Positions 1 through 31,936 of a DNA stretch of 32,319 nucleotides are shown piece after piece. Source of the DNA: a virus (taxonomy: Duplodnaviria; Caudoviricetes); the IMG/VR virus record IMGVR_UViG_3300035003_000005, positions 1 to 32,319 of that record; one strand, 5' to 3'. The position numbers and the translations under genes are program-made. The notes below the pieces were generated by a model. The model was not told where the DNA came from. It was given only the letters and a program-made list of their open reading frames with translations, and did not search any database. Within the stretch, counting starts at the first letter, position 1, and each line of letters opens with the position of its first letter.

Positions 1-366
1 TCAGACGGCCCAACGCAGGGGCTGCTCCGGATCAGCCTCGGCCCGCTCGCCGGGATCGATCAGATCCCACCAGGCGCCGGGGCACAGGGGCTCGACCGGC
101 TCAGGCTCCTGCCACTCCCCGGCGGCTACGGCAGCCTCCCAGCCGCTGATCACCGCTTCCTGCTGGGGATCTTCGGCCTCGGAAGCGGCTTGGCACCCCG
201 GATCCTGGGCCTTGCTGGCGGCCCAGACGCCGAGACGTGCCTGCAGGCGCTGCAGGGCGGCACCGCAGGCGCGGCCCGCTGCAACGCTGAGCTCAGTGGC
301 GACCCAGAGCAGGGCGAGGCTGCAGGCCAGGGCCTGGCGAAACGGGGAGCGGCTGGTGGCTTCCAT
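1..366 (-). CDS. Hypothetical protein (~121 aa, hydrophobic N-terminal stretch, acidic C-terminus)
   Basis: ORF with ATG at 366 (MEATSRSPF...), preceded by hairpin copy A. Confidence 0.55.
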   Translation of the reverse strand: MEATSRSPFRQALACSLALLWVATELSVAAGRACGAALQRLQARLGVWAASKAQDPGCQAASEAEDPQQEAVISGWEAAVAAGEWQEPEPVEPLCPGAWWDLIDPGERAEADPEQPLRWAV

Positions 367-405
367 CGGAGTGCGGCGAAGAACGGCGCCCCTCCGCAGC
401 GGCAA

Positions 406-457
406 GCCGGGAGGTCAAGGGCCGCGCAGCGGCTTGTCTTGCCCTTGACGCCCCGGC
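406..457 (-). promoter_or_regulatory. Conserved CAAGGG/CCCTTG hairpin leader, copy A
   Basis: IR gtcaagggc 414-422 / gcccttgac 441-449; outer IR 406-411/452-457; inner gccgc-gca-gcggc. Confidence 0.7.
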
Positions 458-717
458 GACCGCCAGCCCGTGAGTGCAGCGAACGGCCGCTGGCTGCCCG
501 CTGCACCATGGGGGAGCCTTCCGCCGAACCGGTGGACCACCGCCGCTCCTGCTCGCCTGCCTGTCCGGCCGCCGGTTCTGGCGCTGCTGCTTGCTCAGGC
601 CAGGGCGTAGAAGCGCCCCAGCGTCGTCACGCCCGGAGTGCCGCCGGGGAGCAACAGGCCAGAAGGCAACAACGGGGGAGCAACCAGCCAGAGCCAGCCG
701 CTCCCCGGCACGAGTGC

Positions 718-1149
718 TCAGTGGCCACGGGCTGGCGCAATCCGCCGGAACGGATCCGGCAGACAGGCCTCGACCAGCTCCATGGCCAGGAAGGCCGAGA
801 AGCTCATGCCGCCGCAGCTGATCGCTTCTGCGGCCCCCGGCAGGCTGCCGCGATGGATGGACATCTGCGCCGCTGACGACGCCATGGGCGGATGGCGCCG
901 CTGCAGCTCCGCTTCGATGCGCAGCCGCAGGGCCTGGGGCACCCGGGCGCTGGGGGCATGGCCCCGGGCCCAGCCGCCCAGGGCGCACCAGCGGCAGTGC
1001 TGATCGAGGAGCTTGCTGTGCTTGCCGCGCTTGAGAAAGCGCACCAGTTCCTCACCGGCAACAGGGTGCTCAGGCTGGATGGAGACCCGCCATCGGATGC
1101 CCGCTCTGGTGTGATCGTGCAGCACGATCGGAAACGCTGTGGACGCCAT
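718..1149 (-). CDS. Hypothetical protein, paralog of 30003-30350
   Basis: ATG 1149; shares GIRWRV, LVxFxKRGK, VPxxLxxRIEAxL with the 30003-30350 product. Confidence 0.7.
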   Translation of the reverse strand: MASTAFPIVLHDHTRAGIRWRVSIQPEHPVAGEELVRFLKRGKHSKLLDQHCRWCALGGWARGHAPSARVPQALRLRIEAELQRRHPPMASSAAQMSIHRGSLPGAAEAISCGGMSFSAFLAMELVEACLPDPFRRIAPARGH

Positions 1150-1179
1150 GGCGAAGCCGGCGAAGGACGCCGAAGCCAG

Positions 1180-1244
1180 GCGCGGGGAGGGCAAGGGCGG
1201 CAGAGCGCAGCGAGGCCGCTGGCGCAGCCCTTGCCCCGCCGCGC
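1180..1244 (-). promoter_or_regulatory. Hairpin leader, copy B
   Basis: IR gggcaagggc 1189-1198 / gcccttgccc 1227-1236; outer IR 1180-1185/1239-1244. Confidence 0.75.
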
Positions 1245-1625
1245 ACGCTGAGGAGGCCTGTCGCCCCAACCGGTGGAGGACAAGGCGATTCCGGTGCCGC
1301 CAATAGTGGCGCCTCCATCACGCCCAGGTCAGCCACGAGACTCGTACTCAGCCCACCAGCGCAAAGAACTGTGGTGAGAGCTGCGCAGAAATCTGCGGTT
1401 TTATGCAGATGAGTCAAGCCCGCCACCTCAGTCAGCAAGGGGGAAAGCCGCATATACGCCCCGTTCAGGCCTCACATGGCTTTAATAGGACTGCGCTTGA
1501 GCCACTGCCCACCTGCCATGAGCAGCCCTGACATCCTGATCCAGCGTGTGGGCCTGAAACGGCTTGATTTATGCATCGGACGCATGGATTTGACCATCTT
1601 TTGCGAATAGGGAGCGTTTCTTTTC

Positions 1626-4600
1626 GTGGCTCTTAAGGAACTTTGCACCCCCCGCCCCTCGGTCTTCGCAGCAGATCGGCGCGCCACGGTGCTCAACCTC
1701 GACACCTTCCTCAAGGGTGAGGTGGATGGTGGGGCGTTCTTTGAGGAGAACTACTTCACCAACGGGATGCTCGCTCTGGTGGAGCGTGCCTTCCGTCATC
1801 TGAGTGGCTCTGGTGCTGGCTCCTCGGTGTTTCAGCTCTCCCAGGCCATGGGTGGAGGCAAGACCCACAGCATGATTTCCCTGGGCCTGCTGGCCCGGGA
1901 TCCCCACCTCCGCCAGGAGGTGTGCTCGCAGATCGAAGGCGGCAATCCTGCCCCGAGCTTGGGTGCCTGCCAGGTGGTGGGCTTCAACGGCCGCAGCACC
2001 GATGCCACCGGGGGGATTTGGGGCTCCATCGCAGAGCAGTTGGGCAAGGGCGAGCAATTCGCTAAGTACGTTTCCCCCCTGCTGAGTGCACCGGGCCCGC
2101 AGGCGTGGAAGGAGCTTCTCGGCGAGCAGCCGCTGGTGATCTTCCTGGACGAGCTGCCGCCGTATCTGGAATACGCCGTAGCGGTGCCGGTGGGCAACGG
2201 CAACCTGGCCACGGTGACCACGGCCGCGTTGGCCAACCTGTTCGTGGCCGTCACGGAGATGCCCAACGTCTGCCTGGTGCTCTCCGACCTGGGCGGCACG
2301 AACTACTCCGGTGGGCAGGACAACATCAACCAGGCGGTTGATAAAGCCATCCAGCAGCTGACGGGTGAATCGCGGCGGATTGCGGTGCCGATCACACCGG
2401 TGAATCCCAACGGCGACGAGCTGTATCACATCCTGCGCAAACGCCTTTTTGCCGAGGTGGCACCCCAGAACGCCATTAATGGCGTGGCTGGCTCCTACCG
2501 GGAGGCGCTACGGGAAGCGGTGAACATGGGGCTCACCACCACAACCCCGGAGTCCCTCTACACCCGGGTTCAGGACTCCTACCCCTTCCATCCCGACCTG
2601 CGGGAGCTGGTAGGCAAATTCAAGGAGAACGAGGGGTTCCAGCAGACCCGTGGCGTGATCCGCCTGATGCAGATGGTCGTCTCCGACCTCTGGCACTCAG
2701 GCAAGGCAGCTGGTTTGGAGCTGATCCATCCCTACGACCTCGACCTCAACAAGGATGAGCTCGCCTCAGAGGTGCGCACGATCAACCCCAGCTTGAGTGA
2801 GGCAATCGCTCACGACATCGCCCATGGCGGTGATGCCGAAGTTGAGGTGATCGATGAAGCCAACGGCAACACAGATGCCTCCGATGCCGCCCGCCTGATC
2901 CTGGTGGCCTCTCTCTCCACTACTCCTGGCGCCATCCACGGAATGCGGGAGTACCAACTGGTGGACTGCCTGCAGCGACCTGGCCGAGACCTCTCGTCGT
3001 TCAAGCCGAACGTTCTCGACAAGCTGGCAACGCGGGCCTGGTACCTGCATAACTCACCGGACGGCCGGCTGTTCTTCAAGAACCAGCAGAACCTGGCGGC
3101 CAAGCTGCGCTCCACCGCTCAATCGCTCCACAACGAAACCGTCGAGAGGATGCTGCGGGAGCACCTACAGGACTACTTCGAGCCCAGCCTGCGCGACTGC
3201 TTCCAGGTGGTGAAGGTGCTGCCCCCGCCTGATGAGGTGCAGCTCGATCAGGAGAAAACCACGTTGGTCATCACCCGTCCCGGCGGGCAGGCCAATGGGC
3301 TTCCGGTGTCGCAGGACTGGCAGGACTGGTGGCAGCAGCAGCCATTCAAGAACCGGGTGCTGTTCCTGAGCGGCTCGAAGGACACCTACATGCGCATTCT
3401 TGAGGCTGCTCGGCAAGCGCGCGCCCTAGAGAGCATCGAGGCTGACCTCAAAAGCGAGAACACACCTGCAGATGACCCGCAATGGCGCGCACATGATTCA
3501 CTCCAAGCCCGGATTGGCTTGCAGTTTTCTTCTGCGTTAAAGGAGACTTTTGATCAACTGGTCTATCCATCAAGGGAAAGCTCCCTGCGTCCTAATTCTG
3601 TGATTTTAGATTTCGCAGGAAACACCAATGGCGAGGCCACGATCAAAGAGACCCTGAGAGTTGCCAATAAATTTACGGCTGAAATATCAGATGACAAATT
3701 CCGCGCCTTTGCGGAAGCTCGTCTCTTTGGCTCAACTGATAGTGCCGTAGCTCTGTGGAGTGATGTAAAGCGGGCAGCTGCGACTCGCACCGACTGGCCG
3801 CTGCATAAGACGTCGGCACTCGATGACCTGAAGGCCGACGCGATCCAGCGCGATCGCTGGCGGCCTGAGGGCAACTACGTGCGCAGGGGGCCCTTCCCTC
3901 CGCCGACTCCCAACATCGAGATCCGGGAGCTGAGCCGCGACGACGACGGCGATGGCCGTACCTATCTGCAGTTGATCCCCCTGCACTGCGACAGCATTGT
4001 GTTCGAAAGCGGGGAGAGCGAGCCGACCACCGCCTCATCGCCAGTGCCTTCGACGGCCAAGTTTGAGGCTAAGGGCCTGCAATACAAGTTCCTGGCATTT
4101 GACAGCGAGAACCCTGAGCGCCAAAGCGAGGTGAAGACCTGGACAGCGACCCTGCGACTCAAGAAACAACTCCATGACCGCGGGAATCACTACGAGGTGG
4201 AGCTGTTGGCCTTCCCCAGGGCCAATGGGGTGAGCATCCACTACACAACGGATGGCTCCTCGCCGATCGGCAGCAATGCGGCGGTGTACGACGGGTCGAT
4301 CCGCGTGCCGGACAACTGCCGCAAGGTCTGCGCCGTGGCCCAGGCCCCGACTTACTCGCTGACCTCCCAAGGGATCGTGCAGGACATCCCTAAGCGCGGG
4401 GAGGAGGTGCGCACCATTGATGCCACCCGCCCTGCGCGTTGGCAGAAGGTGAGCAAGCTCGATGACTCTGGGGCGGTGTGGGACCTGATCACCCGGCTGG
4501 AGCAGAACCCAGGGGTGCTGGCCTACGACGTGGAACTTTCTGCCAAGAGCAGCAATGGCGAGCAGATCGTGGACTACTCCGGCTCGCTGGCCAACGGTTA

Positions 4601-4769
4601 CGGCGGCGCCGAGCTCAAGACGGTGGCTGGCAAGCTCCAGGACATCGTGCAGGACGGGACGCTGCGGATGGAGATCGGCAACTTGGGCTTCTCCACTGGG
4701 CAAGCCCTGATCGACTGGCTGAACGCAACTAAGGAGCCGTTCAACCTCAGCTACGTGGATCAGGACTGA
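1626..4769 (+). CDS. DUF499 family ATPase of restriction-like (Gao_RL) anti-phage system
   Basis: 1047 aa; Walker A MGGGKT, Walker B IFLDE, YPFHP motif, GFQQTRGVIR; C-terminal FN3-associated-like IHYTTDGSSP. Confidence 0.9.
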   Translation: MALKELCTPRPSVFAADRRATVLNLDTFLKGEVDGGAFFEENYFTNGMLALVERAFRHLSGSGAGSSVFQLSQAMGGGKTHSMISLGLLARDPHLRQEVCSQIEGGNPAPSLGACQVVGFNGRSTDATGGIWGSIAEQLGKGEQFAKYVSPLLSAPGPQAWKELLGEQPLVIFLDELPPYLEYAVAVPVGNGNLATVTTAALANLFVAVTEMPNVCLVLSDLGGTNYSGGQDNINQAVDKAIQQLTGESRRIAVPITPVNPNGDELYHILRKRLFAEVAPQNAINGVAGSYREALREAVNMGLTTTTPESLYTRVQDSYPFHPDLRELVGKFKENEGFQQTRGVIRLMQMVVSDLWHSGKAAGLELIHPYDLDLNKDELASEVRTINPSLSEAIAHDIAHGGDAEVEVIDEANGNTDASDAARLILVASLSTTPGAIHGMREYQLVDCLQRPGRDLSSFKPNVLDKLATRAWYLHNSPDGRLFFKNQQNLAAKLRSTAQSLHNETVERMLREHLQDYFEPSLRDCFQVVKVLPPPDEVQLDQEKTTLVITRPGGQANGLPVSQDWQDWWQQQPFKNRVLFLSGSKDTYMRILEAARQARALESIEADLKSENTPADDPQWRAHDSLQARIGLQFSSALKETFDQLVYPSRESSLRPNSVILDFAGNTNGEATIKETLRVANKFTAEISDDKFRAFAEARLFGSTDSAVALWSDVKRAAATRTDWPLHKTSALDDLKADAIQRDRWRPEGNYVRRGPFPPPTPNIEIRELSRDDDGDGRTYLQLIPLHCDSIVFESGESEPTTASSPVPSTAKFEAKGLQYKFLAFDSENPERQSEVKTWTATLRLKKQLHDRGNHYEVELLAFPRANGVSIHYTTDGSSPIGSNAAVYDGSIRVPDNCRKVCAVAQAPTYSLTSQGIVQDIPKRGEEVRTIDATRPARWQKVSKLDDSGAVWDLITRLEQNPGVLAYDVELSAKSSNGEQIVDYSGSLANGYGGAELKTVAGKLQDIVQDGTLRMEIGNLGFSTGQALIDWLNATKEPFNLSYVDQD

Positions 4770-4772
4770 GCC

Positions 4773-5396
4773 ATGGCCAGAACCCCCGTAGCTTCACGCA
4801 AGAGCATCGGTCTGGGCTTTGTGCCAGAGGAGAGCCGCCATGGCTTTCTGATCCACATACCCAAGGGTGCCGCCAAGGGGGACCTGATCTCGATCAGCGA
4901 ATACCGGGGCGATCGCTTTAGCGGAGTAGATGTCACCTCCCTACCGGCACCGCCACCTTCCGACCCGGCGCTGCGAGTGTCGTTGGATCGGGGGCGCTGG
5001 GCAGCCCTGGCGCCAGCGTTCTGGGAGGAGGCCAACCGGCGGCTGCGGGCTAACGGCCTGGCCACCGCCAAGCTCACCAAGAGCCCGACCAAGCCGATCC
5101 CGGTGCATCCCTCACTGGGCAAGGAGCTCTGCGTGCTGTGCTGGGCAGTGGAGGAAGCCTCGATTGACGACACCCCCAATGCCCTGCGCAACTGGGAAGC
5201 GCTGGCACCGGAAGAGCGCTGGTGGCTGTACACGATGACAGTGGCCACCACCGGCCAGGCGATGAACAAGGGGGTGGGATGGCGCAAGGCTCTGCGAGCC
5301 GCCATCGCCGATAACCCCTTTGTGAAGGGAGAGGGGATGTCACCCAAAGCTCGCCGTGAACTGCTTGGCCACTCGCAACTAGCGCTTGAGATCTGA
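4773..5396 (+). CDS. DUF3780 family protein of restriction-like system
   Basis: 207 aa; LGKELCVLCWAVE, PEERWWLY, GWRKALRAA motifs; lies between DUF499 and methylase genes. Confidence 0.85.
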   Translation: MARTPVASRKSIGLGFVPEESRHGFLIHIPKGAAKGDLISISEYRGDRFSGVDVTSLPAPPPSDPALRVSLDRGRWAALAPAFWEEANRRLRANGLATAKLTKSPTKPIPVHPSLGKELCVLCWAVEEASIDDTPNALRNWEALAPEERWWLYTMTVATTGQAMNKGVGWRKALRAAIADNPFVKGEGMSPKARRELLGHSQLALEI

Positions 5397-5397
5397 G

Positions 5398-15812: not shown

Positions 15813-16028
15813 TCAGAGCACCGAGATGGTGCTGCCCCTGGCGCCCTGCAGCTTGCGGGCGATCTCGTGCGCCTTGGCGGCCGGCACGAAGCGCAGCTTC
15901 TTGACGGGCTTGCCGCGCTTGCCAAAGAAGCGGACTTCAACGGGATGGGACCCGCCCTTGGCGCCATCGGCGTAGTGATGCTCGATGACGCAGCGGATTT
16001 CGCAGCAGGGGCCTTGTGGTGCAGCCAT
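15813..16028 (-). CDS. Small basic hypothetical protein (71 aa)
   Basis: Protein-like composition (VEVRFFGKRGKPVKKLRF); preceded by hairpin copy C. Confidence 0.7.
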   Translation of the reverse strand: MAAPQGPCCEIRCVIEHHYADGAKGGSHPVEVRFFGKRGKPVKKLRFVPAAKAHEIARKLQGARGSTISVL

Positions 16029-16072: not shown

Positions 16073-16123
16073 CGGTGAAGGCAAGGGGCCGCGCAGCGGC
16101 CTCGCGAAGCCCTTGCCGAACCG
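16073..16123 (-). promoter_or_regulatory. Hairpin leader, copy C
   Basis: ggcaaggg 16080-16087 / cccttgcc 16110-16117; inner ggccgc-gca-gcggcc as in copy A. Confidence 0.7.
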
Positions 16124-16336
16124 CAAGCCGAGGGCAACCTGTGACGCGCCCTTGCTGTTGCCGCCCATCGGCCCGCAGCCCCGCCCAGTGCTGAGGTGCT
16201 GCGTCGATCGCCCGTCGCTGAGCGAGACGAGGCCCAGGCGTGGCAAGAGCTCCACAGGGCAGGGACCGCTCCGCTGTTGGCTGCGCAACCCACAGGTCCT
16301 TGCTCTCCCTCTACCAATCCCTCGTTCCATGTCGTC

Positions 16337-20604: not shown

Positions 20605-20802
20605 TCAATACGGCACTTCCTCAGGCCGGATCCAGGCCGGGCAGGAGGGCGGATTGGCTAGCTGCCGCTCCAGCAGCAGCGCATCGGCCAGCCCCCCCAA
20701 GCGCGGCAGGGGAGGACAGGTGGTGCAACAGATGAAGCTCAACCGCTCCAACGAGGCGGAGCTGTGGTGGGAGAGGGAGCGGATGCGGGCAGCGGTGGCC
20801 AT
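20605..20802 (-). CDS. Small hypothetical protein (65 aa)
   Basis: ATG lies at the same spacing from hairpin copy D as in the other copies. Confidence 0.45.
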   Translation of the reverse strand: MATAARIRSLSHHSSASLERLSFICCTTCPPLPRLGGLADALLLERQLANPPSCPAWIRPEEVPY

Positions 20803-20833: not shown

Positions 20834-20890
20834 GCGGGATGGGGTCAAGGGCGGCGAAGCCGCTCGCGTCAGCCCTTGAGGCCATCCCGC
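20834..20890 (-). promoter_or_regulatory. Hairpin leader, copy D
   Basis: tcaagggc 20845-20852 / gcccttga 20872-20879; outer gcgggatgg/ccatcccgc. Confidence 0.75.
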
Positions 20891-21018
20891 ACGATGAAGC
20901 GACCTGCGTGAGCCAGTCCCCCAGAGGGGCCAGGGCCTGGAAATCCCGGGAGCCCCCACTCCTGCTGCCAAGACAGCGCTCAGGCGGGGCCACCACGAGG
21001 GCGACTCCGCCCCGGCCA

Positions 21019-21543
21019 TCAGGCCCGGACAGCGGCAACCTGCAGGGCGCGCCGGCGCTGCAGGCTCTGCTGCACGATCTCGGCCTGGCCGGCGTGATCG
21101 CTGGCGCGGAAGTGCTGCAGCTCATCCCAAGGAAGCCCCTGCTCGAAGGCCTGATGGATCGGGCAACAGCGCTGCACCAGCGCCGAGCAGTGCTTCCACA
21201 GGATGCGCTTGGCATGGTGCGCCTCGCTCTCGCTGAGCGCCTCGTGTTGGCCCTCAGCCAGACGGCGGGACACGCCCACCGCTTTTCCGTGGATCACGGT
21301 GCCGCCCAGCAGCGGCCAGTGCAGGCTTTCCAGCTCGCGGGCCTTCGCCCAGGCGCCGCCGTGGGCGACCACGATCGGCCCGACCCGGGAGAAGGTGAGC
21401 GATTCTGGGCGGCAGAAACACAGCCAGCCGAGCAACTCAGAGCTGAGCACGGGCTCGGGTGGAACGTGAACCCCAATAGAGGTGCAGACGTGATCGCTGT
21501 GGGTGAGGGCCTTGCGCTGGATGAGCAGGATCTGGAGTGCCAT
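21019..21543 (-). CDS. Hypothetical protein (174 aa)
   Basis: ATG 21543 (MALQILLIQRK...), preceded by hairpin copy E. Confidence 0.6.
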   Translation of the reverse strand: MALQILLIQRKALTHSDHVCTSIGVHVPPEPVLSSELLGWLCFCRPESLTFSRVGPIVVAHGGAWAKARELESLHWPLLGGTVIHGKAVGVSRRLAEGQHEALSESEAHHAKRILWKHCSALVQRCCPIHQAFEQGLPWDELQHFRASDHAGQAEIVQQSLQRRRALQVAAVRA

Positions 21544-21574: not shown

Positions 21575-21641
21575 CTGCGGCGCGGGCAAGGGTCGGCGGA
21601 GCGCAGCGGCGCCGACTTGCGCAGCCCTTGCACCGCCGCAG
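21575..21641 (-). promoter_or_regulatory. Hairpin leader, copy E
   Basis: gcaaggg 21586-21592 / cccttgc 21625-21631; outer ctgcggcg/cgccgcag. Confidence 0.75.
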
Positions 21642-21700
21642 ATCGTGAGGAAGGCCGCCGCCTGCCCCTTTCAAACCGGTTCCCGCAGGCGCCTTTCCCC

Positions 21701-21720: not shown

Positions 21721-21750
21721 GTTGCTGGAGCCCCTGCTCCCGGAGTGACC

Positions 21751-22650
21751 ATGGGCCTCACCCTCATCGAGGCGATGAAGCATGAGACGCGGGTCGATCG
21801 CCTCGCTGTCACCAAGACCTTCGCGGAAGGTGAGCTTCTACGCCGGCTGCCGTTCCGCAATCTCTCCGGCGGTGCCCTCAAGTACCCCAAGGAGATCAAG
21901 CTGCCCCGCGTCGGCTTCCGCGGTGTCAACGAGGGCTACCGCCGCAGCTACGGCGCCATCACCAACGAGACCGAGTTCGTCCATCTCTTCGGGGGGGACC
22001 TCGATGTGGACCGCTCGATCGTTGACATGAACGGCGCCGAGGCCAGAGCCAGCCAGACCGAGCAGAAGGTCCGCTCCATGCGCATGACGCTGGAGGCCGC
22101 GATCATCAACGGTGACGCCAGCTTCGATCCACGCGCCTTCAACGGCCTCAGCAAGCGGCTGGTGCCCGATGGGCCCCGCACCATCGACAACGACGGCGGC
22201 ACCGTCAAGCTCACCAGGCTCGAATCGCTGGTGGATTCGGTCAACGCCAATGGCGGTGAGAAGGTGCTGCTCACCAGCAAGGCAGGACGGCGCCAGATCA
22301 GTCACGCCAGCCGTGAGGCCGGCGGTGACCTCTACCAGGTGATCGACGGACGCCACTGGTTCGAGGACACCGAGATCCTCTGCGTGGATGAGGACGCCAA
22401 CGGCCATCCTGTGCTCGGCTTCGGGGAAGCCGGCAGCACCACCAGCTTCTACTGCTGCGCCTTCGGCGACGAGATGGTCACCGGTCTGCAGGGCCCCTTC
22501 GAGGGTCGCTACGGCATCTCCGTGCGCGACTTCGGCGAGGTCCCCGATGCCCCGGTCTTCCGCACCCGGGTGGATTGGTACGTCGGCTTCGCGGTCTGCA
22601 ACGACCGCTCCGTGGGCCGGCTGTTCAACATCGGCCCCGCCGTCAACTGA
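21751..22650 (+). CDS. Major capsid protein (HK97 fold, epsilon15 gp7-like)
   Basis: MGLTLIEA, LLRRLPF, LPRVGFRGVNEGY, FGGDLDVDR, INGD...FNGLSKRL, RTRVDWYVG; GGAG RBS. Confidence 0.85.
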   Translation: MGLTLIEAMKHETRVDRLAVTKTFAEGELLRRLPFRNLSGGALKYPKEIKLPRVGFRGVNEGYRRSYGAITNETEFVHLFGGDLDVDRSIVDMNGAEARASQTEQKVRSMRMTLEAAIINGDASFDPRAFNGLSKRLVPDGPRTIDNDGGTVKLTRLESLVDSVNANGGEKVLLTSKAGRRQISHASREAGGDLYQVIDGRHWFEDTEILCVDEDANGHPVLGFGEAGSTTSFYCCAFGDEMVTGLQGPFEGRYGISVRDFGEVPDAPVFRTRVDWYVGFAVCNDRSVGRLFNIGPAVN

Positions 22651-23138: not shown

Positions 23139-23148
23139 GGGCCGACCC

Positions 23149-23700: not shown

Positions 23701-23753
23701 GACCCGCCATGCGTTCTGCCGCTGGCAATGGTCAGTAGCCCGGTGCGTGAGCG

Positions 23754-24533
23754 ATGCCCTACCCGCTGCCCTCCACGCCACCGCAGAACGGCGATCGCCT
23801 CCGCCTGCTGCCACCCCTCGGCTGCCCCGGCCGGGGCGAGTGGGTGGTGCCCCATGAGGTGCCGCGCTGGCTGGCCATCGGCTTCCGCACCGCACCCGTT
23901 CCTGCCCTCGATCTGGAGCTCAGCTGGATGCCATCCCCGCGGCGTTGGGATGAACCGGCCCTCTCTCGCGCCGTGGCGCTGCTGGTGAACCCTCGGGCGC
24001 TGCCGCCGCAGCCGATCGAGATCACCTGGGGGGATGGCAGCAGCGAGACGGTGCCCTGGACGCCCTACGACCAGCGGATACCGGAACCCCGCCACCTCTA
24101 CACCGACATCGAGGATCACAGCGTCACCGTGCAGGTGGGACTCCTGGTCGCCACCCTTGAGGTGGCGCTGCACAGCTGCCCGCTCCCCATCACGTCACCG
24201 CGGGCCGGTGACGATCCGCCCCGCGTTGGTGTGGGCCTGGCCCTGGTGCCTGGTGCCGGCCTGAGCGGCAACGCCTTCGATGGCAGCCGCAACGAGCAGT
24301 GGCAGCTGCGCCTCCATCCGCAGGGCGGCCTCGGGCTGCTGCCCAGCCCCGTCGACGGCCAGCCGGCGCTGGTGGCGATGCACGGCTCCGGCGTGGCCAG
24401 CCGCGGCGTTCGCTGGTACTCGGGTGACGGTCCACCCACCTTGCAGTGGCACGAGGAGGTGCAGCCGCCGCCGGCGCCGGGGGATCTGTATCTGGATCGG
24501 CTCAGCGGCAGCATCTACGAGCTGGAGGTCTGA
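23754..24533 (+). CDS. Putative virion protein with PKD-like domain and fibre motif
   Basis: ITWGDGSSE..HLY PKD signature; C-terminal WYSGDGPP..GDLYLD. Confidence 0.65.
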   Translation: MPYPLPSTPPQNGDRLRLLPPLGCPGRGEWVVPHEVPRWLAIGFRTAPVPALDLELSWMPSPRRWDEPALSRAVALLVNPRALPPQPIEITWGDGSSETVPWTPYDQRIPEPRHLYTDIEDHSVTVQVGLLVATLEVALHSCPLPITSPRAGDDPPRVGVGLALVPGAGLSGNAFDGSRNEQWQLRLHPQGGLGLLPSPVDGQPALVAMHGSGVASRGVRWYSGDGPPTLQWHEEVQPPPAPGDLYLDRLSGSIYELEV

Positions 24534-24733
24534 TGAGCTGGACCCCCACCGGTGATTCGCTGCGCGGCCCCCCGGGCCCGTCGCCGAGCTGGGGCGCCAT
24601 CGGCGGCAGCCTCGGCGACCAGATCGACCTGCAGCAGGCCCTGGCCACCAAGCTCAACGCCTCGCGCCTCACCGTTGGCCCCACGCCGCCACCCGACCCA
24701 GCTCCTGGTGACCTCTGGATCGACACCACCTGA
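24533..24733 (+). CDS. Small fibre-module protein (66 aa)
   Basis: TGATG coupling; WGAIGGSLGDQIDLQQAL and PAPGDLWIDT fibre motifs. Confidence 0.65.
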   Translation: MSWTPTGDSLRGPPGPSPSWGAIGGSLGDQIDLQQALATKLNASRLTVGPTPPPDPAPGDLWIDTT

Positions 24734-24735
24734 CC

Positions 24736-25548
24736 ATGGCCATCACCTCCCGCGACCAGTTGATCGCCGCCCTGGCGAACTCCCGCCATTCCTTGTTCGA
24801 CAAGGCCTCGATCAGCAACGCCGTCGTCGGCCGCTTCTATTCCCTCTGGCGGGCGACGGGGCAGCCAGGCCAGGGCGCCATCCCCACCGCGCCGGCGGCC
24901 TGCACCAACGCCCTGTTGGGCTCGTTGAACTACCTGCCCCAGCCGCAGCCTTCCAGCAACTACATCGGCTGGGTGGATGTGGCCACCAGCCTCGCGACCG
25001 GCAGCCTGGAGATTCACGACCGCCTCTGCCACCAGGGCGGACTGGTGGGGAACCTCAACACCCTCCAGAGCACCAACCTGCCGCTCTCCCTGGCCGGCGT
25101 TGCGGCAGAGCGGATCGGCCTTGGGGATTTCAGCCAGCTGCAGTGGTGGCTGGAGTGGTACGCCGACACCGGCTCCACGGCCGTCACCGCCAACGTGAGC
25201 GTGGTCTGCGAGGACGACAGCACCCAGGTGGTGGCGGTGCCGCTGGTCGCCACCAGCCGCGCCTCGGGGCTCTACCAGATCCTGCCGCCGCAGGGCAGAA
25301 CCGGCATCAAGGCGGTCAACAGTGTCCAGCTCAGTGCCACCAGCGGCACCGCCGGCAACTTCGGTGTCACCTGCAGCCGCTACCGCGCCGGGTTCTTCAC
25401 GGTGGTGGCGAACAAGGCGGAGGTGTTCGACTGGGCCGCCCTTGGCCTGCCGGATCTCCACAGCGACGCCTGCCTCTGCCTCATCCAGCTCTGCACCGCC
25501 ACCACCACGGGCATCTCCAAAGGTGTAGCCCGCTTCATCGCCGGTTGA
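24736..25548 (+). CDS. Putative virion structural protein (270 aa)
   Basis: MAITSRDQLIAA start, Ala/Thr/Gly/Ser-rich, in operon. Confidence 0.7.
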   Translation: MAITSRDQLIAALANSRHSLFDKASISNAVVGRFYSLWRATGQPGQGAIPTAPAACTNALLGSLNYLPQPQPSSNYIGWVDVATSLATGSLEIHDRLCHQGGLVGNLNTLQSTNLPLSLAGVAAERIGLGDFSQLQWWLEWYADTGSTAVTANVSVVCEDDSTQVVAVPLVATSRASGLYQILPPQGRTGIKAVNSVQLSATSGTAGNFGVTCSRYRAGFFTVVANKAEVFDWAALGLPDLHSDACLCLIQLCTATTTGISKGVARFIAG

Positions 25549-25551
25549 GCC

Positions 25552-25800
25552 ATGGCCCGCCATGAGCGCGACGCCCGCCCTCCCTTCCCGGGTGGCTCCG
25601 ATCGCTGGGACCGGGGCCCGGCCGGTGACCTCATCACGGCTGACTTCTTCTCGCCTCAGCCGCCACCGCCAGCCGGGGGCGAGCTGCGCTTCTGGAGCGG
25701 CACCGACTGGCGTAGCCGGCCGGTGTTGGTGTGGACCGGCAGCACCTGGACGGCGAAACCCGCCCGCCGCTGGAGCGGCACCGCCTGGCTGCTCACCTGA
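25552..25800 (+). CDS. Small protein with WxGxxW repeats
   Basis: WSGTDW, WTGSTW, WSGTAW. Confidence 0.6.
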   Translation: MARHERDARPPFPGGSDRWDRGPAGDLITADFFSPQPPPPAGGELRFWSGTDWRSRPVLVWTGSTWTAKPARRWSGTAWLLT

Positions 25801-25870
25801 GCGGTAAGTGCGGCCTCCGCTGGCCCTGCGGGGCTGGCAATAGAGGGCAGGCACGTCCTGCTTTCGCCCC

Positions 25871-26905
25871 ATGACCTGGCAGAACACCGGCTCCCTCCGC
25901 GGCCCCCAGGGCGTGCCGGGGCCTCCCGGCCAGGCCGGCGGCCCCGGGCCAGCAGGCCCGCCAGGCCCCGCCGGGATGGGCATCGACTTCAAGGGCAGCG
26001 TTCCAACCTTTGCCGCCCTGCCCACGAACGGCCTGCAGGAAGGCCATGCCTATGTCGTCGCCGATCAAAACGACCGGCTCTACGTCTGGGACGCGGACAC
26101 CAGCAGCTGGGTGGATGGGGGCTCGATCCAAGGGCCGCCGGGACCTGCTGGAGCACCGGGCAGCGCCGGCCCCCGCGGCAGCGGCTGGTTCGTTGGCAGC
26201 GGCCCGCCTGGCTCCATCCCCACCGCCCTGGTGGGCGATCTCTATCTCGATCTGGTCAGCGGTGAGGTGCACCAGCTGCAGCCGCCCCCGACCGGCTTCC
26301 CGGTCGCCAACCTGCCGGCGATCGGCGCCGCCTTCCAGGGCGGCTACTACGGCGGGCTGATCTCGCAGGCCGCCAACGGCATCGCCAGCCATGCGCTGAT
26401 CATTGCCCCCAAGGCCACAGGCGAAAGCTCCAGGGCCTGCAAGAGCGCCAACACCGCCACCGCCGGGACGGGCAGCAGCTTCGATGGCTTCGCCAACAGC
26501 GAGGCGGCCAAGGACGCCGCCCACCCGGCCAACCAATGGGCCCGGGCGCTCTCCATCGGCGGCTACGACGACTGGTACATCCCGGCCCTCTACGAGCTGG
26601 AGATCCTCTACCGGCGCTTCAAGCCGGACAACAGCGAGGGCAGCACGCCAGGCTTCGGGGCGAACGCCTACGCCATTCCCGCCACCACCGCCAACTACTC
26701 CGGCGTGATTCCAGCCCAGACCGCCGTGGCGCTGTTTACGACCGGCGGCGCCCAGGCGTTCTTTTCCGGCGGGATTGGCACCTCCACCCAGGACTCGGCC
26801 ACCACCCACCAGGTGCAGGACTGGTACTACGGCAACTGGGATCCGCTGAGCAAGACCACGGCTCAGACGGTGCGGGCGATTCGAAAGATCGCCGTGGTGC
26901 CCTGA
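25871..26905 (+). CDS. Collagen-like fibre with C-terminal DUF1566/C-type-lectin-like domain
   Basis: Gly-X-Y repeats; IGAAFQGGY, GGYDDWYIPALYEL, terminal VRAIR. Confidence 0.8.
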   Translation: MTWQNTGSLRGPQGVPGPPGQAGGPGPAGPPGPAGMGIDFKGSVPTFAALPTNGLQEGHAYVVADQNDRLYVWDADTSSWVDGGSIQGPPGPAGAPGSAGPRGSGWFVGSGPPGSIPTALVGDLYLDLVSGEVHQLQPPPTGFPVANLPAIGAAFQGGYYGGLISQAANGIASHALIIAPKATGESSRACKSANTATAGTGSSFDGFANSEAAKDAAHPANQWARALSIGGYDDWYIPALYELEILYRRFKPDNSEGSTPGFGANAYAIPATTANYSGVIPAQTAVALFTTGGAQAFFSGGIGTSTQDSATTHQVQDWYYGNWDPLSKTTAQTVRAIRKIAVVP

Positions 26906-26908
26906 GCC

Positions 26909-27319
26909 ATGCCCTGGGTCGCCAGACAGGAGGGACCGCGCCGGCTCAGCCAGAGCCTGCTGCTCCCGATCGCCGCCGGCCCCCAGGTGGCACCACTGAG
27001 CTTCGATCGGCTGGGCAGTGCCGGGCTGCTGCTGCTCGTCAGCTGCGACATCCCGGCCTGGCTCAGCCTCTACGTCTCGGACGCCGCCGCCCTCGCCGAC
27101 GCCAATCGGCCCCAGAGCGCCGATCCGGATCCGGCGGCTGGCGTGGTGCTCGATGCCGTCTTTACAGAAGACAGCGCGGTGCTGCGCCTGCCGCCGGGGG
27201 TGAGCTGGGCCAACCAGGACGATCCCCCCGCCGCCCTGCTGCATGGCCGGCTGCGCACCGACCAGGGCCAACCCATCGAGGCGATGCTGTCGATCAGCAG
27301 CCTGCTGCTGGCGCTTTGA
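26909..27319 (+). CDS. Cyanophage-like fibre-associated domain protein
   Basis: AWLSLY...ADANRP..DPDPAAGVVLD pattern recalled from cyanophage virion proteins. Confidence 0.6.
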   Translation: MPWVARQEGPRRLSQSLLLPIAAGPQVAPLSFDRLGSAGLLLLVSCDIPAWLSLYVSDAAALADANRPQSADPDPAAGVVLDAVFTEDSAVLRLPPGVSWANQDDPPAALLHGRLRTDQGQPIEAMLSISSLLLAL

Positions 27320-28182
27320 TGGCGGCGATCCTCACCGATCTCTCCCGCCGCGGCGATCAGGGCTTCCCGCTGCCGGATCTCTTCACCGACGTGGAGGCCC
27401 TTTTGGCCAGCTGGCTGGTGGCGGCCAACGCCCAGAACCCCACCCAGCTGCTCGAGGTGCTCACCGGCCCGGCCGCCGATGCCGAGCATCTGGGCTGGAC
27501 GATCCGCGCCACCCTCGCCGCCACCAGCGGCGGTGCCCCTGTCCAGCTGATGAGCCAGTGGGTCGCAACCCTGGCCGGCACCACCGCCACCACAGCGGTG
27601 GGCCTGGCCGCCGGCCACAACCCCAACGGCGGCCTCGGCGCCCACGGCCTGCTCAGCGGCGGCCAGTTCCACGCCCCGGCATCAAGCCTCAATCCCGCGG
27701 AGCCTTACCCGGCCCTGGCCTGGGTCGTGCGCAGCCTGGCTCCGGGTCAGGAATACTTCGGCTTCTGCCTCTCGCTGCACACCTTCTCCACCCGCCAGGC
27801 GGTGGTGCTGCTGATCGCCAAGGACGTCACCTCAGGCCTCTGGCACCTGCACAACACCACCATGGGCGGCCTCCAGTGCATGGTCGCCTGGAACCTCGCC
27901 GCCGCCAGGGAGATCTTCGCGACGGCCCTGTGGAGCGAGTTCTTTAACGGGCCCCCGTTCGCCTTGCGCCACCCTTCGGCCTGGATGCTGGCAACCCCTT
28001 CGATCGTCCATGTCACCCCCCTGCCGCCGCTGCGCCGCTGGGATCCGGTGGTGTTGCCGGCGGACTTCGGCACCTACAACCGCACCTTCGCCACCGGCGG
28101 CTACCTCAAAGCCGCCAACGGCAGCGAGTGGCTGGTCTTTGGCCCCAGCCGCCTGGCGGTTCGTCTCATCGACGCCCCATGA
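27319..28182 (+). CDS. Putative virion protein (287 aa)
   Basis: TGATG coupling at 27317-27321; similar to the next gene. Confidence 0.7.
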   Translation: MAAILTDLSRRGDQGFPLPDLFTDVEALLASWLVAANAQNPTQLLEVLTGPAADAEHLGWTIRATLAATSGGAPVQLMSQWVATLAGTTATTAVGLAAGHNPNGGLGAHGLLSGGQFHAPASSLNPAEPYPALAWVVRSLAPGQEYFGFCLSLHTFSTRQAVVLLIAKDVTSGLWHLHNTTMGGLQCMVAWNLAAAREIFATALWSEFFNGPPFALRHPSAWMLATPSIVHVTPLPPLRRWDPVVLPADFGTYNRTFATGGYLKAANGSEWLVFGPSRLAVRLIDAP

Positions 28183-29405
28183 CCCTCACGGCCTGTGCCC
28201 GCACCTGGGGCCCGGACACCTACAACTGGGCCAGCAGCGCCGCCACCGATGTCGGCATGCGGCTGCATGAGGCCTTCTCCGCCTTCGCCGCCGCGGCAAA
28301 CGCCAACCCGGCCAATACCGATCTGCAGCTCAGCGTGCTGCGCAATCACGCCAGCGCCACCGGCAGCACCAGCTACGGCTTCGTGTGGCGCCTCGGGCAC
28401 CCCACCTCCCCCCTGGTGCTGAGCTTCCACAACGTCTCCCTGGCCCAGGGCTTCAGCTCCAGCACCGCCAGCGCCCTGCTGCGCCTGGGCCTGGCCAGCA
28501 ACTGGATCGATGACACCAGCAACGGCGGCTACGGCAACTTTTCTTCCACCCTGCTGAGCGCCAACCGGGGCCTCTCCCACTACGGGCCCAGCGGGACGCC
28601 TGCGGTGGCGGGGCTGGAGGGGACCCTGATCGTCGTCTTCGATGCCACCCCAGGGGCGGAGTTCTTCCTGGCCACCCTGCTGCGCCCCGGCGATGACAAC
28701 TACAGCCTCAACCTCTCGATCCTGCTGTTCCGCAGCCCGGCGGTCAGCGGCTGGAACCTCTGGTTCCACCGCGCCCGCGCCTACATCGGCATGTTCAGCT
28801 CCAACGATCGCTGGAGTTGGCGCGGCCAGTCCCCGGAGGTCGTCAGCTTCGTTTCAGGCGCCTCCGGCACCCAGCAGATCAACGCCCCCATCGCCTGGCA
28901 GGTCATCCCGCTGGCCACCGGTGCGGTGCAGTTCAACAGCGTCCAACCCCGTCTTCTCCTGCCACCCCTGCTCTGGAATGGCGACAACCAGCACACCGAC
29001 CCCCGCCGCCTGGCTCGTTTCAGTGACCCCGCCGGTGGCGGCACCTACTACCAGCTCGGCGCCGCTGGTGGCGCCGTCGATGACCTCTGGCTCCGGCTCC
29101 CCTCCAGCCCTCCGCCGTCTGTGTTGAGTGGCTGGGCGGCCATCGGTTCACTCAGCTGGCGCAGCCTCAGCGATCGCTTCTCCGTCATGGCCCTGCCGCC
29201 GCTCTCCCCCTCCCTGATCGGACCGGCGAGCGTGCCGGATCTGATCACGGACTGGAGCCCCAACGCCGCCGGCCTGGCCGGCGTGCAGCAGCACCCGCTC
29301 TATGCCCAGCAGCTGGCTGCCGCTGGTGGCATGGGCGGGGGAACGGGCGGCGGCGGCGGATCGGGCCGGCCCGCCACCGGCGTGCTCTGGCCAAGGCGGC
29401 AGTAA
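28179..29405 (+). CDS. Putative virion protein (408 aa)
   Basis: ATGA coupling; Gly linker and terminal RPATGVLWPR. Confidence 0.7.
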   Translation: MTLTACARTWGPDTYNWASSAATDVGMRLHEAFSAFAAAANANPANTDLQLSVLRNHASATGSTSYGFVWRLGHPTSPLVLSFHNVSLAQGFSSSTASALLRLGLASNWIDDTSNGGYGNFSSTLLSANRGLSHYGPSGTPAVAGLEGTLIVVFDATPGAEFFLATLLRPGDDNYSLNLSILLFRSPAVSGWNLWFHRARAYIGMFSSNDRWSWRGQSPEVVSFVSGASGTQQINAPIAWQVIPLATGAVQFNSVQPRLLLPPLLWNGDNQHTDPRRLARFSDPAGGGTYYQLGAAGGAVDDLWLRLPSSPPPSVLSGWAAIGSLSWRSLSDRFSVMALPPLSPSLIGPASVPDLITDWSPNAAGLAGVQQHPLYAQQLAAAGGMGGGTGGGGGSGRPATGVLWPRRQ

Positions 29406-29523
29406 CGGCGCGCCGCCTACGACGCGTGCCAGCGCAGGGCTGCGGACATCGCAACAGCAAACACGCGCTTCGTGGTGTCGACGGGACGGGGGCCCAACGG
29501 GCGCCTGCGGTGCTCCGCCCATC

Positions 29524-29934
29524 TCAGCGCCGCCGCGACGGCGACCTGGCCAGGTGATGCACCGCATGGGCCACCACCCCAAACAGTCCCGAGCGATCGA
29601 ACGACTCCAGATCCAGCACGATCACCGCTTCCCCGGCGCGTTGCGGCTCCAGCAGCCACTGCTCCCCCTCACACCGCAGCGGCCGCAGCAGAAACACCCC
29701 CCGGTGGGCCACGATCACCACATCGCCGCTGCGGGGCTCGACACTGCGGTCGATCACGAGCAGGTCGCCGTCGTGGATGCCGTGGCTGCGCAGCCCATGG
29801 CCGCTGACCCGCATGTAGAAGCTGCAGGTTGGATGGGGCACCAGGGCGCCGTGGAGATCCAAACCCTCCTCATCGGCGCTGACGCTGCAAGGAATCGGTT
29901 GGCCCAGGGGCAGCTCGGCCAGCATCGTCCCCAT
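29524..29934 (-). CDS. UmuD/LexA-like S24 family protein, apparently catalytically dead
   Basis: LDL..LVPHP..SFYMRVSG..GIHDGDLLVIDRS..GDVVIV..FGVV; GHGL replaces GxSM and LLRPL replaces TxKRL. Confidence 0.8.
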   Translation of the reverse strand: MGTMLAELPLGQPIPCSVSADEEGLDLHGALVPHPTCSFYMRVSGHGLRSHGIHDGDLLVIDRSVEPRSGDVVIVAHRGVFLLRPLRCEGEQWLLEPQRAGEAVIVLDLESFDRSGLFGVVAHAVHHLARSPSRRR

Positions 29935-29941
29935 CCGCAGC

Positions 29942-29955
29942 AGTACAGATGTCCT
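29942..29955 (-). promoter_or_regulatory. Cyanobacterial-type LexA box
   Basis: AGTAC-AGAT-GTCCT (one mismatch from AGTAC-N4-GTACT), just upstream of the umuD-like ATG. Confidence 0.6.
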
Positions 29956-30002
29956 ACTACGGATGGAGCCTCTCCGGCCTGCTCTCCGCAGCAGCGTGGC
30001 CC

Positions 30003-30350
30003 TCAGCCGCCGGGGCCGCCGCCCCGCACCGGCAGGCGCACCAGACGCCCTCGCACCTGGCCCCATTCGCTGCGCCGCCGCGGCAGCGGCGCACCCCGCA
30101 GCAGCGCCTCGATCCGCTCCACCAGGCAGCGCGGCACCAAACCCCCGCTGACCTGCTCCCGGGGGGTGAGGAAGCTGCCGCTGTGCAGCGGGCTCCAGTG
30201 GGCCTGCTGCCAATGCAGCAGCCGGCCGGCCTTGCCCCGCTTCTCGAACAGCACCAGCGCACGGGCTCCAGGGCGGAAGCTGGGCAGCAGGGTGACGCGC
30301 CAGCGGATCCCGCTGCGCTGAACATCAAGAAGGATCTGAACACCGGCCAT
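30003..30350 (-). CDS. Hypothetical protein, paralog of 718-1149
   Basis: GIRWRV...LVLFEKRGK...VPRCLVERIEALL. Confidence 0.7.
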   Translation of the reverse strand: MAGVQILLDVQRSGIRWRVTLLPSFRPGARALVLFEKRGKAGRLLHWQQAHWSPLHSGSFLTPREQVSGGLVPRCLVERIEALLRGAPLPRRRSEWGQVRGRLVRLPVRGGGPGG

Positions 30351-30380
30351 GGCCGCAGCGGTGAAGGACCCGACCTCCCG

Positions 30381-30481
30381 GCGGGCCCGCGCAAGGGCTG
30401 GCCGGCGCCCTTGGCACCAGCTGCTGTGGGCAGAAAGCAGCCGGCGGAGGCCAGCTCGCGAAGCCCTTGCGCGAGGCCCGC
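30381..30481 (-). promoter_or_regulatory. Hairpin leader, copy F (expanded interior)
   Basis: 12-bp IR cgcgcaagggct 30388-30399 / agcccttgcgcg 30462-30473; outer gcgggcc/ggcccgc. Confidence 0.75.
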
Positions 30482-30592
30482 AGGATGGGGAGGGCCGCCA
30501 CCGCCTCTTCTGGCTCGCGAACCGATCCCGTCGCTAAAGCGACTGTCTTACCCTACTGACCCCGACTAGCCTTTCGCAGCGATAGCAGCCTC

Positions 30593-30838
30593 ATGGCTAT
30601 GGATCTGCTCTGCACTGGCACTGACAAGCAGACCGTCGACACCCTCCTCCTGCCGGAGCGCAGCCTCGTGAGGCGGTGGTCGCTCCTGGCCATCCAGCAG
30701 GCCAACCCGTCGACCTTCATGCGCCACCAGTACGCCCGCCACGCCGCGGCTCGCATGCTGGCTGCCTGCAGCGACTGGTTGGAGAGCAACGGCCACCGCC
30801 ACCTCGCCGCCGCCATGCGCGAGCAGCTCAAGGCCTGA
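30593..30838 (+). CDS. Hypothetical protein (81 aa)
   Basis: GC3-rich ORF with helical pattern (ACSDWLESNGH..LAAAMREQL). Confidence 0.55.
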   Translation: MAMDLLCTGTDKQTVDTLLLPERSLVRRWSLLAIQQANPSTFMRHQYARHAAARMLAACSDWLESNGHRHLAAAMREQLKA

Positions 30839-31832
30839 GCGACTCAGCCGGTGGCCTCAGGCCAGGATCCGCAGCTCCGCCTCCCGATGCCGCTGCAGGG
30901 ATTGGATCTCCGGCCGGCTCCTCGGGACAGGGCGCCTCCGGGCACAACAGATCCACCGCTTGGCGCGCCTCGCTGATCACCTGCAGCAGCACCTTCGGGG
31001 ACTCGCGCAACACAGAGATCCAGCTCTGCAGATAGGCGGCGTGATGGGCCAGCTCGCAACCGATCTGCAGCCGCTGGCCGATCAGCACACTGCCCAGCTC
31101 GGCCACCAGCTCCTCGCGGGCATAGCCGCGGGAGCCAAACGCACCAGATAGATCCCGCTTCAGGCGGGATTCGTGGCACGTGGAGTGAATGCACTCGTGG
31201 GCCCAGGTGGCATAGAGCGCAGCCGGCGAGTGGAAGGCCTCGCGCTCGGGCAGCTGGATGCGATCGGCGCCGAGGGCATAGAAGGCCCGCTCACCGCCCC
31301 AGCCAACCGGCACCTCCCAGGCCTGCAGCACCTCCTCGGCCTGCTCGATCCGCTCCAGCGGTGCCCTGGGCTGCACCTGCGGCAGCCGGGCTTCGATCAG
31401 AGCGGCGAGCGCCTCGCCTTCCAGATCGCAGGCATTGAACACCGGCACCGGCCGGTAGCGTGCCCAGCTGCGCAGCACCGGCTCACCCTCGCTGCCCTCC
31501 TTTTCGCTGGACTGCAGCTGGGGCCGCAGGATGCGAACCGACTTCGATCCCTTGCGCGGGAAGAGGCCCAGCTTCTTCGCCTCGGCGAAGCCGCACCAGA
31601 ACGGCAGCTCAGCGCCCCGCATGGCCATCCCCAGCTCCAGGAGGATGGGATTGCCGCCCCGGTAGGCCCGGCCGCTGAGCAAATTGCTGTGGACGCCGCC
31701 ACCGCGGCTATCCCATGGCCGGCGCCAGGGTGTGCTGCCGGCCTCGAGCAGCTCGATCAGATCGCGCACCATCGCCTCCTCGGGCGAGGGACCGGAGAAC
31801 CTGTGGCGGCGCGTGGTGGTGGATGCGGCCAT
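30828..31832 (-). CDS. ardC: ArdC-family antirestriction / ssDNA-binding protein
   Basis: PWRRPW, SGRAYRGGN, VFN, AFY..DRIQLP, HECIH zincin motif, YAREELVAELGS, AYLQSW; ATG 31832. Confidence 0.9.
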   Translation of the reverse strand: MAASTTTRRHRFSGPSPEEAMVRDLIELLEAGSTPWRRPWDSRGGGVHSNLLSGRAYRGGNPILLELGMAMRGAELPFWCGFAEAKKLGLFPRKGSKSVRILRPQLQSSEKEGSEGEPVLRSWARYRPVPVFNACDLEGEALAALIEARLPQVQPRAPLERIEQAEEVLQAWEVPVGWGGERAFYALGADRIQLPEREAFHSPAALYATWAHECIHSTCHESRLKRDLSGAFGSRGYAREELVAELGSVLIGQRLQIGCELAHHAAYLQSWISVLRESPKVLLQVISEARQAVDLLCPEAPCPEEPAGDPIPAAASGGGAADPGLRPPAESLRP

Positions 31833-31862
31833 CGGGAAGGGCGCAAAGGACGCCGACGTGCC

Positions 31863-31936
31863 TGCGCGGGTGAGCGCAAGGGCGGGAGGCCCGCCAGGGC
31901 CGAACCGCTCGCGCAGCCCTTGCGCCATCCCGCGCA
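31863..31936 (-). promoter_or_regulatory. Hairpin leader, copy G
   Basis: gcgcaagggc 31874-31883 / gcccttgcgc 31916-31925; outer tgcgcggg/cccgcgca. Confidence 0.75.

Follow-up and report, generated by a model that had tools for sequence, protein, structure and literature searches.

Promoters that exist only on hairpins of single-stranded DNA (ssDNA) are known from conjugative plasmids and are unexpected in phage. In the literature found, those tested to date come from enterobacterial conjugative plasmids, the tested examples being Frpo1/2 and ssp2 (PMC9849209, PMC12672017, 10.64898/2026.01.09.698686, PMC13478746, PMC11541004); ssp2 (class 2) is placed there upstream of klcA/ardB in F, and of klcA and ardA in pESBL (PMC12672017, 10.64898/2026.01.09.698686, PMC13478746). 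Here we analyse a stretch of viral DNA of 32,319 nt (IMG/VR record IMGVR_UViG_3300035003_000005, positions 1–32,319; the whole of it is called the window), which corresponds to G000:C7:35451-67769 in a picocyanobacterial genome (G000; 3.25 Mb, ~68% GC) with relatives named Cyanobium and Synechococcus, and which belongs to a phage-like element that encodes a head. An initial annotation had pointed to seven co-oriented CAAGGG…CCCTTG repeats upstream of minus-strand genes, ardC among them, and had offered ssDNA promoters, priming sites or a cis-acting RNA motif as explanations. The repeats are probably a real, conserved and hitherto undescribed family of compact ssDNA promoters used as a regulon by phage-like elements, a reading based on sequence anatomy, strand asymmetry, covariation and distribution. 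A literature search, covering titles and abstract openings outside subscription papers, returned no description of the motif or of the head-encoding elements. The novelty lies in a family that is compact and can be aligned, whose core is invariant across at least eight phyla and whose promoter hexamer varies from host to host; the rules by which RNA polymerase acts on folded ssDNA are therefore testable with short oligonucleotides.

Seven hairpin repeats and their fold

The palindrome CAAGGG-N5–35-CCCTTG matches the window eight times, compared with 0.10 matches expected, and none of 100 shuffles reached eight. Seven of these matches are the annotated copies, and the eighth, at 9234, falls inside an SNF2 helicase gene and is without the bulge motif. 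A covariance model trained on 43 short-core copies in template-strand orientation, two of the seven window copies among them, detected every one of the seven on the + strand (E ≤ 1.3e-4), and the next distinct match in the window had E 0.2. The copies lie where they had first been placed, each before a minus-strand gene. A whole-genome search of G000 with the model (150 of 3197 candidates scored) recovered six of the seven, all within the element and on one strand, and found no match outside it. Because of this absence the repeat is not a genome-wide repetitive extragenic palindrome (REP): the many-copy spread in both orientations that the initial annotation had named as one possible refutation was not seen, and a REP-like repeat was rejected. 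No Rfam family matched the window at gathering score, and in nine related loci the motif was unmatched at E ≤ 1. The distances from outer stem to ATG, counted by hand, are 40, 31, 45, 32, 32, 31 and 31 nt for copies 1 to 7, as previously reported. The outer stems are not fully paired as had been claimed, since mismatches are present. The bulge motif is found in six copies and has been lost from copy 1, and five copies fold with z ≤ –2.5 on the + strand, copies 1 and 3 (z –0.6 and –1.5) folding no better than shuffles.

Read on the + strand, the core takes the form CAAGG-G[upper hairpin]C-TY-GC-GNA-GC-CCTTG, a three-way junction, and because it is read on this strand the invariant bulge of the initial annotation becomes a GC-GNA-GC mini-hairpin; in 23 of 107 copies the variant GC-GTCA-GC takes its place. 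The search queries fixed the mini-hairpin, and the upper-hairpin loops were absent from every query. These loops are polar: in picocyanobacteria 42 of 83 have G..A on the template strand versus 1 the other way, and elsewhere 28 of 56 versus 2 on the sense strand. Loops of the d(GNA) type, when closed by C-G, form turns of unusual stability in DNA (PMC3201870). Isolated mismatches in other phyla favour template-strand G·T (60 versus 19), and picocyanobacterial mismatches include 41 template G·A versus 5 C·T; in the loop and mismatch tallies a few picocyanobacterial loci were counted as 'other', and these were regrouped for the hexamer analysis. Covariation bore out paired structure, with a score of 0.37 compared with 0.088 for shuffled and at most 0.062 for slid alignments (43 sequences), with four of the five upper-stem pairs and two flanking pairs changing on both sides. 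Core and mini-hairpin pairs are uninformative in this respect because they are nearly invariant. The structure thus most likely forms on the template (+) strand of the genes, as DNA, and not on the minus strand on which it was first folded.

Distal arm, distribution and proposed mechanism

In picocyanobacteria the distal arm carries NAnnnT 8–12 nt after TTG in 25 of 37 sequence types, compared with 0/37 on the gene-side arm and 3.1 (maximum 9) in shuffles. A(–11) and T(–7) have textbook roles in the –10 element; A(–11) is unpaired in 20 of the 25, and the five nucleotides upstream of this A are paired at 118 of 125 positions. With a second, long-spacing class at 18–21 nt, the –10-like [C/G]AnnnT is found on the distal arm of 29/37 types and on the gene-side arm of none, and six of the seven window copies possess such a hexamer. 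Canonical –35/–10 spacing is clear mainly outside cyanobacteria: a canonical TAnnnT 15–19 nt from the TTG hexamer was found in 0/32 on either arm in picocyanobacteria, and in other phyla (45 types, after L004, L125, L170 and L182 were dropped as doubtful) the hexamer peaks 16–17 nt after TTGACN, with NAnnnT at 24 versus 10 and TAnnnT at 10 versus 3 (p 0.07). The Bacteroides –7 and –33 elements are spaced 19–21 nt apart. Three of four Bacteroides-type plasmids have TACCTTTG 20 nt after TTG on the distal arm, the fourth having TACATTTG in its place; TACCTTTG matches the Bacteroides –7 consensus, TAnnTTTG (PMC4747536). Judged by these motifs, the distal arm appears to follow the promoter consensus of each host, such as TTGACN-16/17-TAnnnT or, in Bacteroides, TACCTTTG. 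When copies 2 and 4 are folded on the + strand, their GTCCTTCGC box is paired with the distal arm.

Of 301 family genomes, 32 contain the exact pattern and none the reversed control. Hairpins cluster among head genes in six relatives (proteins scanned: 146/221 for G160, G247 and G055; 28/68 for G262; 43/64 for G024 and G239), and wherever a locus has virion genes the copies (86 of 86) are antisense to them, although some of these records overlap and all are kin; 21 copy-bearing loci held no virion gene within the stretch fetched. For elements that encode capsids, such strict use of one strand implies that there is a single-stranded stage or a response to DNA damage, neither of which tailed-phage biology would predict. 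The one-strand rule fits a defined ssDNA route, as weak evidence, because accessory genes often oppose the late operon anyway. The ATG follows the core by 30–75 nt, mostly 40–44, in 114 of 121 picocyanobacterial copies. The genes behind the copies vary among relatives; recurring families are ArdC (16 times) and five small families of no known function (8–20 times each), and one hairpin subtype stands upstream of Gp157 and Rad52/Sak annealing genes. Several small uncharacterised families are thereby flagged as candidate anti-defence or establishment factors. In one relative (L050–L055, G160:C1:344000-437000) the portal and capsid genes are ~70 kb apart, and the interval holds BREX, arsenic-resistance-type and metal-transport genes, with hairpin copies kept at both ends.

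Beyond these genomes, the model found two others in a phylum-wide sample of 150, both matches lacking the exact mini-hairpin. A scan of one genome per species returned at least 120 stretches with the core, some of them chance matches in coding sequence, in Bacillota, Bacteroidota, Chloroflexota, Pseudomonadota, Actinomycetota, Acidobacteriota, Spirochaetota and Patescibacteria. Contexts elsewhere (142 of 269 called open reading frames (ORFs) scanned) include a MOBQ relaxase with ArdC and a methylase (L126), ArdC (L122), RadC (L144, L296), SSB (L121), DUF932 (L011), inovirus Zot (L180), a rolling-circle Rep (L116) and relaxases (L157, L161), and the ArdC link recurs both in relatives and in Gammaproteobacteria. 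In Bacteroides mobilisable plasmids mbpA is closely preceded by a copy on the strand inferred to be transferred, and plasmid pRGI01058 carries two inverted copies, one per strand. With the relaxase genes taken as last to enter, hairpin strand and transferred strand coincide in the Bacteroides plasmids, L126 and L161, given an inferred oriT position only. Blastn of copy 3 against plasmids gave chance matches only; short-core matches to isolated phages were all partial, none spanning the whole core, and the motif was thus not found in any cultured phage. Among the wider set, a 2.2 kb RepL plasmid (L289, HG796421.1) has near-perfect copies at 1321-1404 and 2140-2223 in opposite orientation, one per strand, and an AT-rich viral contig that also carries the motif has a glutamine riboswitch (RF01739) at L008:7034-7149. 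In Bacteroidota and Chloroflexota (L107, L112, L119, L132, L163, L135, L128) the motif often stands at contig ends or at the 3′ end of an rve or a Mutator transposase gene, as though it belonged to a repeated mobile element.

In the mechanism that we propose, each copy would be a promoter that exists only while the template strand (+ in the window) is single-stranded. This strand would fold into a long imperfect stem under the three-way junction, composed of the CAAGG/CCTTG stem, the variable upper hairpin, a two-pyrimidine linker and the GC-GNA-GC mini-hairpin. The distal arm would act as the non-template strand and supply a –10 element with A(–11) already unpaired, the GTCCTTCGC box would form the duplex around the start site, and host RNA polymerase would copy the other arm and continue into the gene. 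Because the gene-side arm lacks a –10, duplex DNA would turn the gene off. The outcome would be a burst of ArdC, UmuD-like and small uncharacterised proteins while the element is single-stranded, with an RNA primer for the second strand perhaps a further output. From sequence we infer folding in vivo, promoter activity, its timing and the route to single-strandedness, as well as expression of the hairpin-led genes on entry into a new cell. Candidate routes are import by competence proteins, as in RcGTA, natural transformation with the island, replication by strand displacement, mobilisation in trans, and resection of DNA ends or breaks, in which case the hairpins would serve as damage sensors. 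A bolder version, which we consider rather unlikely, is that head-encoding picocyanobacterial elements in which no tail was recognised deliver one defined strand, for example through the host ComEC channel (ComEC is present in 5/5 genomes: G000 and four relatives, 99–100% complete), and would therefore keep establishment genes on ssDNA-only promoters; ArdC, UmuD, Sak/Rad52 and the small uncharacterised proteins would all lie on the delivered strand, and the core would be a cross-phylum three-way junction that host RNA polymerase reads and that is re-tuned per host sigma factor.

Several observations weigh against the ssDNA-promoter reading. The 8–12 nt window was picked after the data had been seen, the picocyanobacterial hexamer is never TAnnnT (0/37), 8/37 types have no hexamer in either window, and a constant leader length was not supported, the hexamer offset failing to predict start-codon distance (rho –0.30, p 0.14). 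As regards the strand, isolated G·T mismatches in picocyanobacteria lean towards sense (22 versus 12 template, p 0.12), and folding energies barely separate the strands there (18/32); the sequences are related, so that p-values are overstated. RNA from three metatranscriptomes consists of contigs only, scattered pieces of relatives that carry no strand, start or level. Many non-cyanobacterial copies adjoin transposases or housekeeping genes without leading into a gene, and in L157 and L122 the hairpin strand differs from the inferred transferred strand. Finally, a double-stranded DNA (dsDNA) head-encoding element has no obvious single-stranded stage, and a source of ssDNA was not apparent in the relaxase and coupling-protein families: PF10412 and PF03432 were not found in G000, and PF08751, PF03389, PF01076 and PF02534 were absent from all five genomes, in a search that covered six families in G000 and four in the four relatives, other relaxase families not being searched. 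The conjugative leading-region setting of the initial annotation therefore gives way to a phage-like one, which offers no leading region or oriT to account for the strand bias.

Four other explanations were weighed. The hairpins could be mainly sites of single-strand initiation (priming) or replication roadblocks, with the genes expressed in some other way, which we consider improbable. The mbpA-proximal Bacteroides copy and the inverted pair of pRGI01058 would suit such a role, and in one study Frpo primes, and ssp2 stalls, second-strand synthesis (10.64898/2026.01.09.698686). However, an ATG stands within the stated distance of the core in 114 of 121 picocyanobacterial copies, and priming alone would hardly explain why 32 kb should hold seven origins, every one of them tied to the start of a gene; priming and promoter roles are, in any case, compatible. 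About equally improbable is control in duplex DNA, in which the distal arm would be an ordinary promoter directed away from the small gene, with the palindrome as an operator or cruciform for a regulator or sigma factor of the element. The + strand read linearly does give TTG..-16/17-TAnnnT or TTGCGN-18-NAnnnT, copy 5 lies ~100 nt upstream of the capsid gene, and the elements encode sigma factors and are of a kind with no known ssDNA stage; yet the neighbour that stays constant is the gene on the opposite side, an operator needs neither variable half-site spacing nor compensatory change nor strand-polar GNA loops, and no sigma-70 consensus site was found in 15500-32319.

Slightly less probable again is a structured 5′ RNA leader on the minus-strand mRNAs, acting through translational control or attenuation. 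The fixed position before start codons is what such a leader would show, and the sense lean of G·U-type mismatches in picocyanobacteria agrees with it, whereas other phyla favour the opposite strand, the sense loops are C-UNC-G triloops and not RNA tetraloops, Rfam gave no match, and an RNA model would not account for a promoter hexamer that is specific to the host and lies on the complement of the 5′ arm. Among the three options first listed, the ssDNA promoter is thus the best supported and cis-RNA is disfavoured by loop sequences and Rfam. Least probable are recombination handles for cassette swapping, as in the PeSLs of T4-type phages, or passengers from plasmids: the genes behind the copies do differ among relatives, and PeSLs are described as joining promoter and stem-loop and driving shuffling (PMC2839356), but only ~20 invariant bases are shared, the copies preserve structure as their sequences drift apart (homologous recombination would need the opposite), and among the loci examined the main downstream families occur only in or beside head-encoding elements.

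The host element and the genes behind the copies

The element, which ends at tRNA-Pro (C7:68140), has genes for terminase, portal, scaffold, major capsid, fibre-like proteins, a sigma factor, Erf, exonucleases and RusA. On contig C5 the tRNA end recurs at 248902 and 260430, an integrase-like ORF directly follows the second of these copies, and a tandem repeat is common to the C5 end and the C7 start, which together suggest an element of ~79 kb if, as we infer, C5 and C7 join. A Pfam tyrosine-integrase search was negative on C5, the integrases there having been found by PHROGs and inspection. No tape-measure or tail-tube gene was recognised in the subset of ORFs scanned from the element and the flanks of related capsid genes. 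The major capsid protein (21751..22650, +; PHROG 212) shares 42% identity with the cyanophage P-SS2 capsid. The protein encoded after it has a confident beta-sandwich fold; in fold comparison it matched jelly-roll domains only weakly (E above 0.001 throughout) and a tail tube not at all. Atlas searches gave no name for two structural-module proteins.

All seven copies are given here on the + strand and their genes on the minus strand. Copy 1 (406..457, core 416-447; 41.9 bits; z –0.6) is degenerate, having neither mini-hairpin motif nor –10-like hexamer, and precedes a 121-aa gene of unassigned function (1..366) whose family also occurs in relatives. Copy 2 (1180..1249, core 1192-1233; z –3.7), with –10-like CACGCT at 1244-1249, precedes a 143-aa gene of unassigned function (718..1149) that shares a blastp family with the gene behind copy 6. 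Copy 3 (16073..16140, core 16082-16115; z –1.5) is of the long-spacing type, with CAACCT at 16135-16140, 16 nt past TTGCCG, and precedes a 71-aa gene of unassigned function (15813..16028). Copy 4 (20834..20895, core 20846-20878; z –3.2) has the GC-GTCA-GC variant and CACGAT at 20890-20895; behind it lie a 65-aa gene (20605..20802) and then YkuD-like and tail-lysozyme-like genes on the same strand. Copy 5 (21575..21646, core 21587-21630; z –3.1), with GATCGT at 21641-21646, is just upstream of the capsid gene and precedes a 174-aa gene of unassigned function (21019..21543). Copy 6 (30381..30486, core 30392-30469; z –2.7; 23.8 bits) has a long apical insert and CAGGAT at 30481-30486, and is followed by a 115-aa gene and then a UmuD-like gene (29524..30350). 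Copy 7 (31863..31940, core 31877-31922; z –2.5), with CACACT at 31935-31940, precedes the 334-aa ArdC anti-restriction gene (30828..31832; phrog_7245), the identity of which is borne out by PF08401 and PF18818.

Other features of the element and its surroundings were noted in passing. A DUF499–DUF3780–DUF1156–SNF2/PLD helicase operon (window 1626-12621) is defence-like cargo between the scaffold and capsid genes, and relatives carry BREX, type I restriction–modification or the DUF499-type operon among their head genes. Window 16950-17310 is non-coding, without an Rfam match, and is repeated in diverged form on C5 (87% over 389 nt) and in part on C11; very deep RNA contigs cover 17060-17310 in one metatranscriptome, and the element may here carry an abundant small RNA of cyanobacteria. 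A Mo-nitro_C/TerB-domain gene (17411-18079, –) is similar to a host gene on C4. Two small antitoxin plus PIN-like pairs lie back to back between LysM and scaffold genes at G000:C7:32272-33672 (L002:16272-17672). A second element of 11.5 kb (G000:C5:248902-260474; L297, L298), between the two tRNA-Pro end copies, has integrase, primase-like and excisionase-like genes and a 1043-aa tape-measure-like gene, with no head genes among those scanned; adjoining the head-only element, it could be a satellite or partner.

Comparison with described systems

The early promoters of coliphage N4, a dsDNA phage, are template-strand hairpins of 5–7 bp with C-GNA-G loops that need the phage's own virion RNA polymerase. 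In the window element, an N4-type virion polymerase was not seen among the scanned genes, and the hexamer follows the host consensus. PeSLs of T4-type phages resemble the window copies as repeated regulatory units before variable accessory phage genes, but they are described as strong sigma-70 duplex promoters with terminator stem-loops (PMC2839356), whereas here the adjacent gene has its promoter-like bases on the wrong strand, unless the DNA folds; neither promoter-like nor terminator-like sites were found at copies 3–7. RcGTA is described as a phage-like particle whose DNA enters the cytoplasm through competence proteins (PMC9690577). Unlike the window element, for which such entry is a proposal, it packages random host DNA and has a tail.

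The plasmid ssDNA promoters are closer. Frpo/ssi elements (class 1, F and ColIb-P9) share the proposed mechanism, and F Frpo1/2 are enclosed by a CAAGGGG/CCCCTTG stem, but they are described as ~330 nt long with an A/T-tract core (PMC11541004), and by inspection that core is absent here. Like the window copies, ssp2 is a long template-strand hairpin before an anti-restriction gene, with a CAAGGG/CCCTTG stem; by eye, its sequence in F runs GCGAAGC, three bases and CCCTTG, with TAAGAT 15 nt after TTGCAT on the distal arm. It differs in a ~130-nt insert above the stem, in three extra bases after the mini-hairpin and in its place in a conjugative leading region, window-type copies being 70–110 nt long and situated in phage-like elements. 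A leading-region location was rejected for the window copies, as the relaxase and coupling families searched were not found. The covariance model had no match at E ≤ 2 in F 50–68 kb, ssp2 and Frpo included, and the repeats are therefore not sequence members. The feature of the functional class, a template-strand stem-loop directly upstream of a gene, was found here in the folds of five of the seven copies, in covariation and in loop polarity. The best reading is that the repeats would function like ssp2 and Frpo while belonging by sequence to neither.

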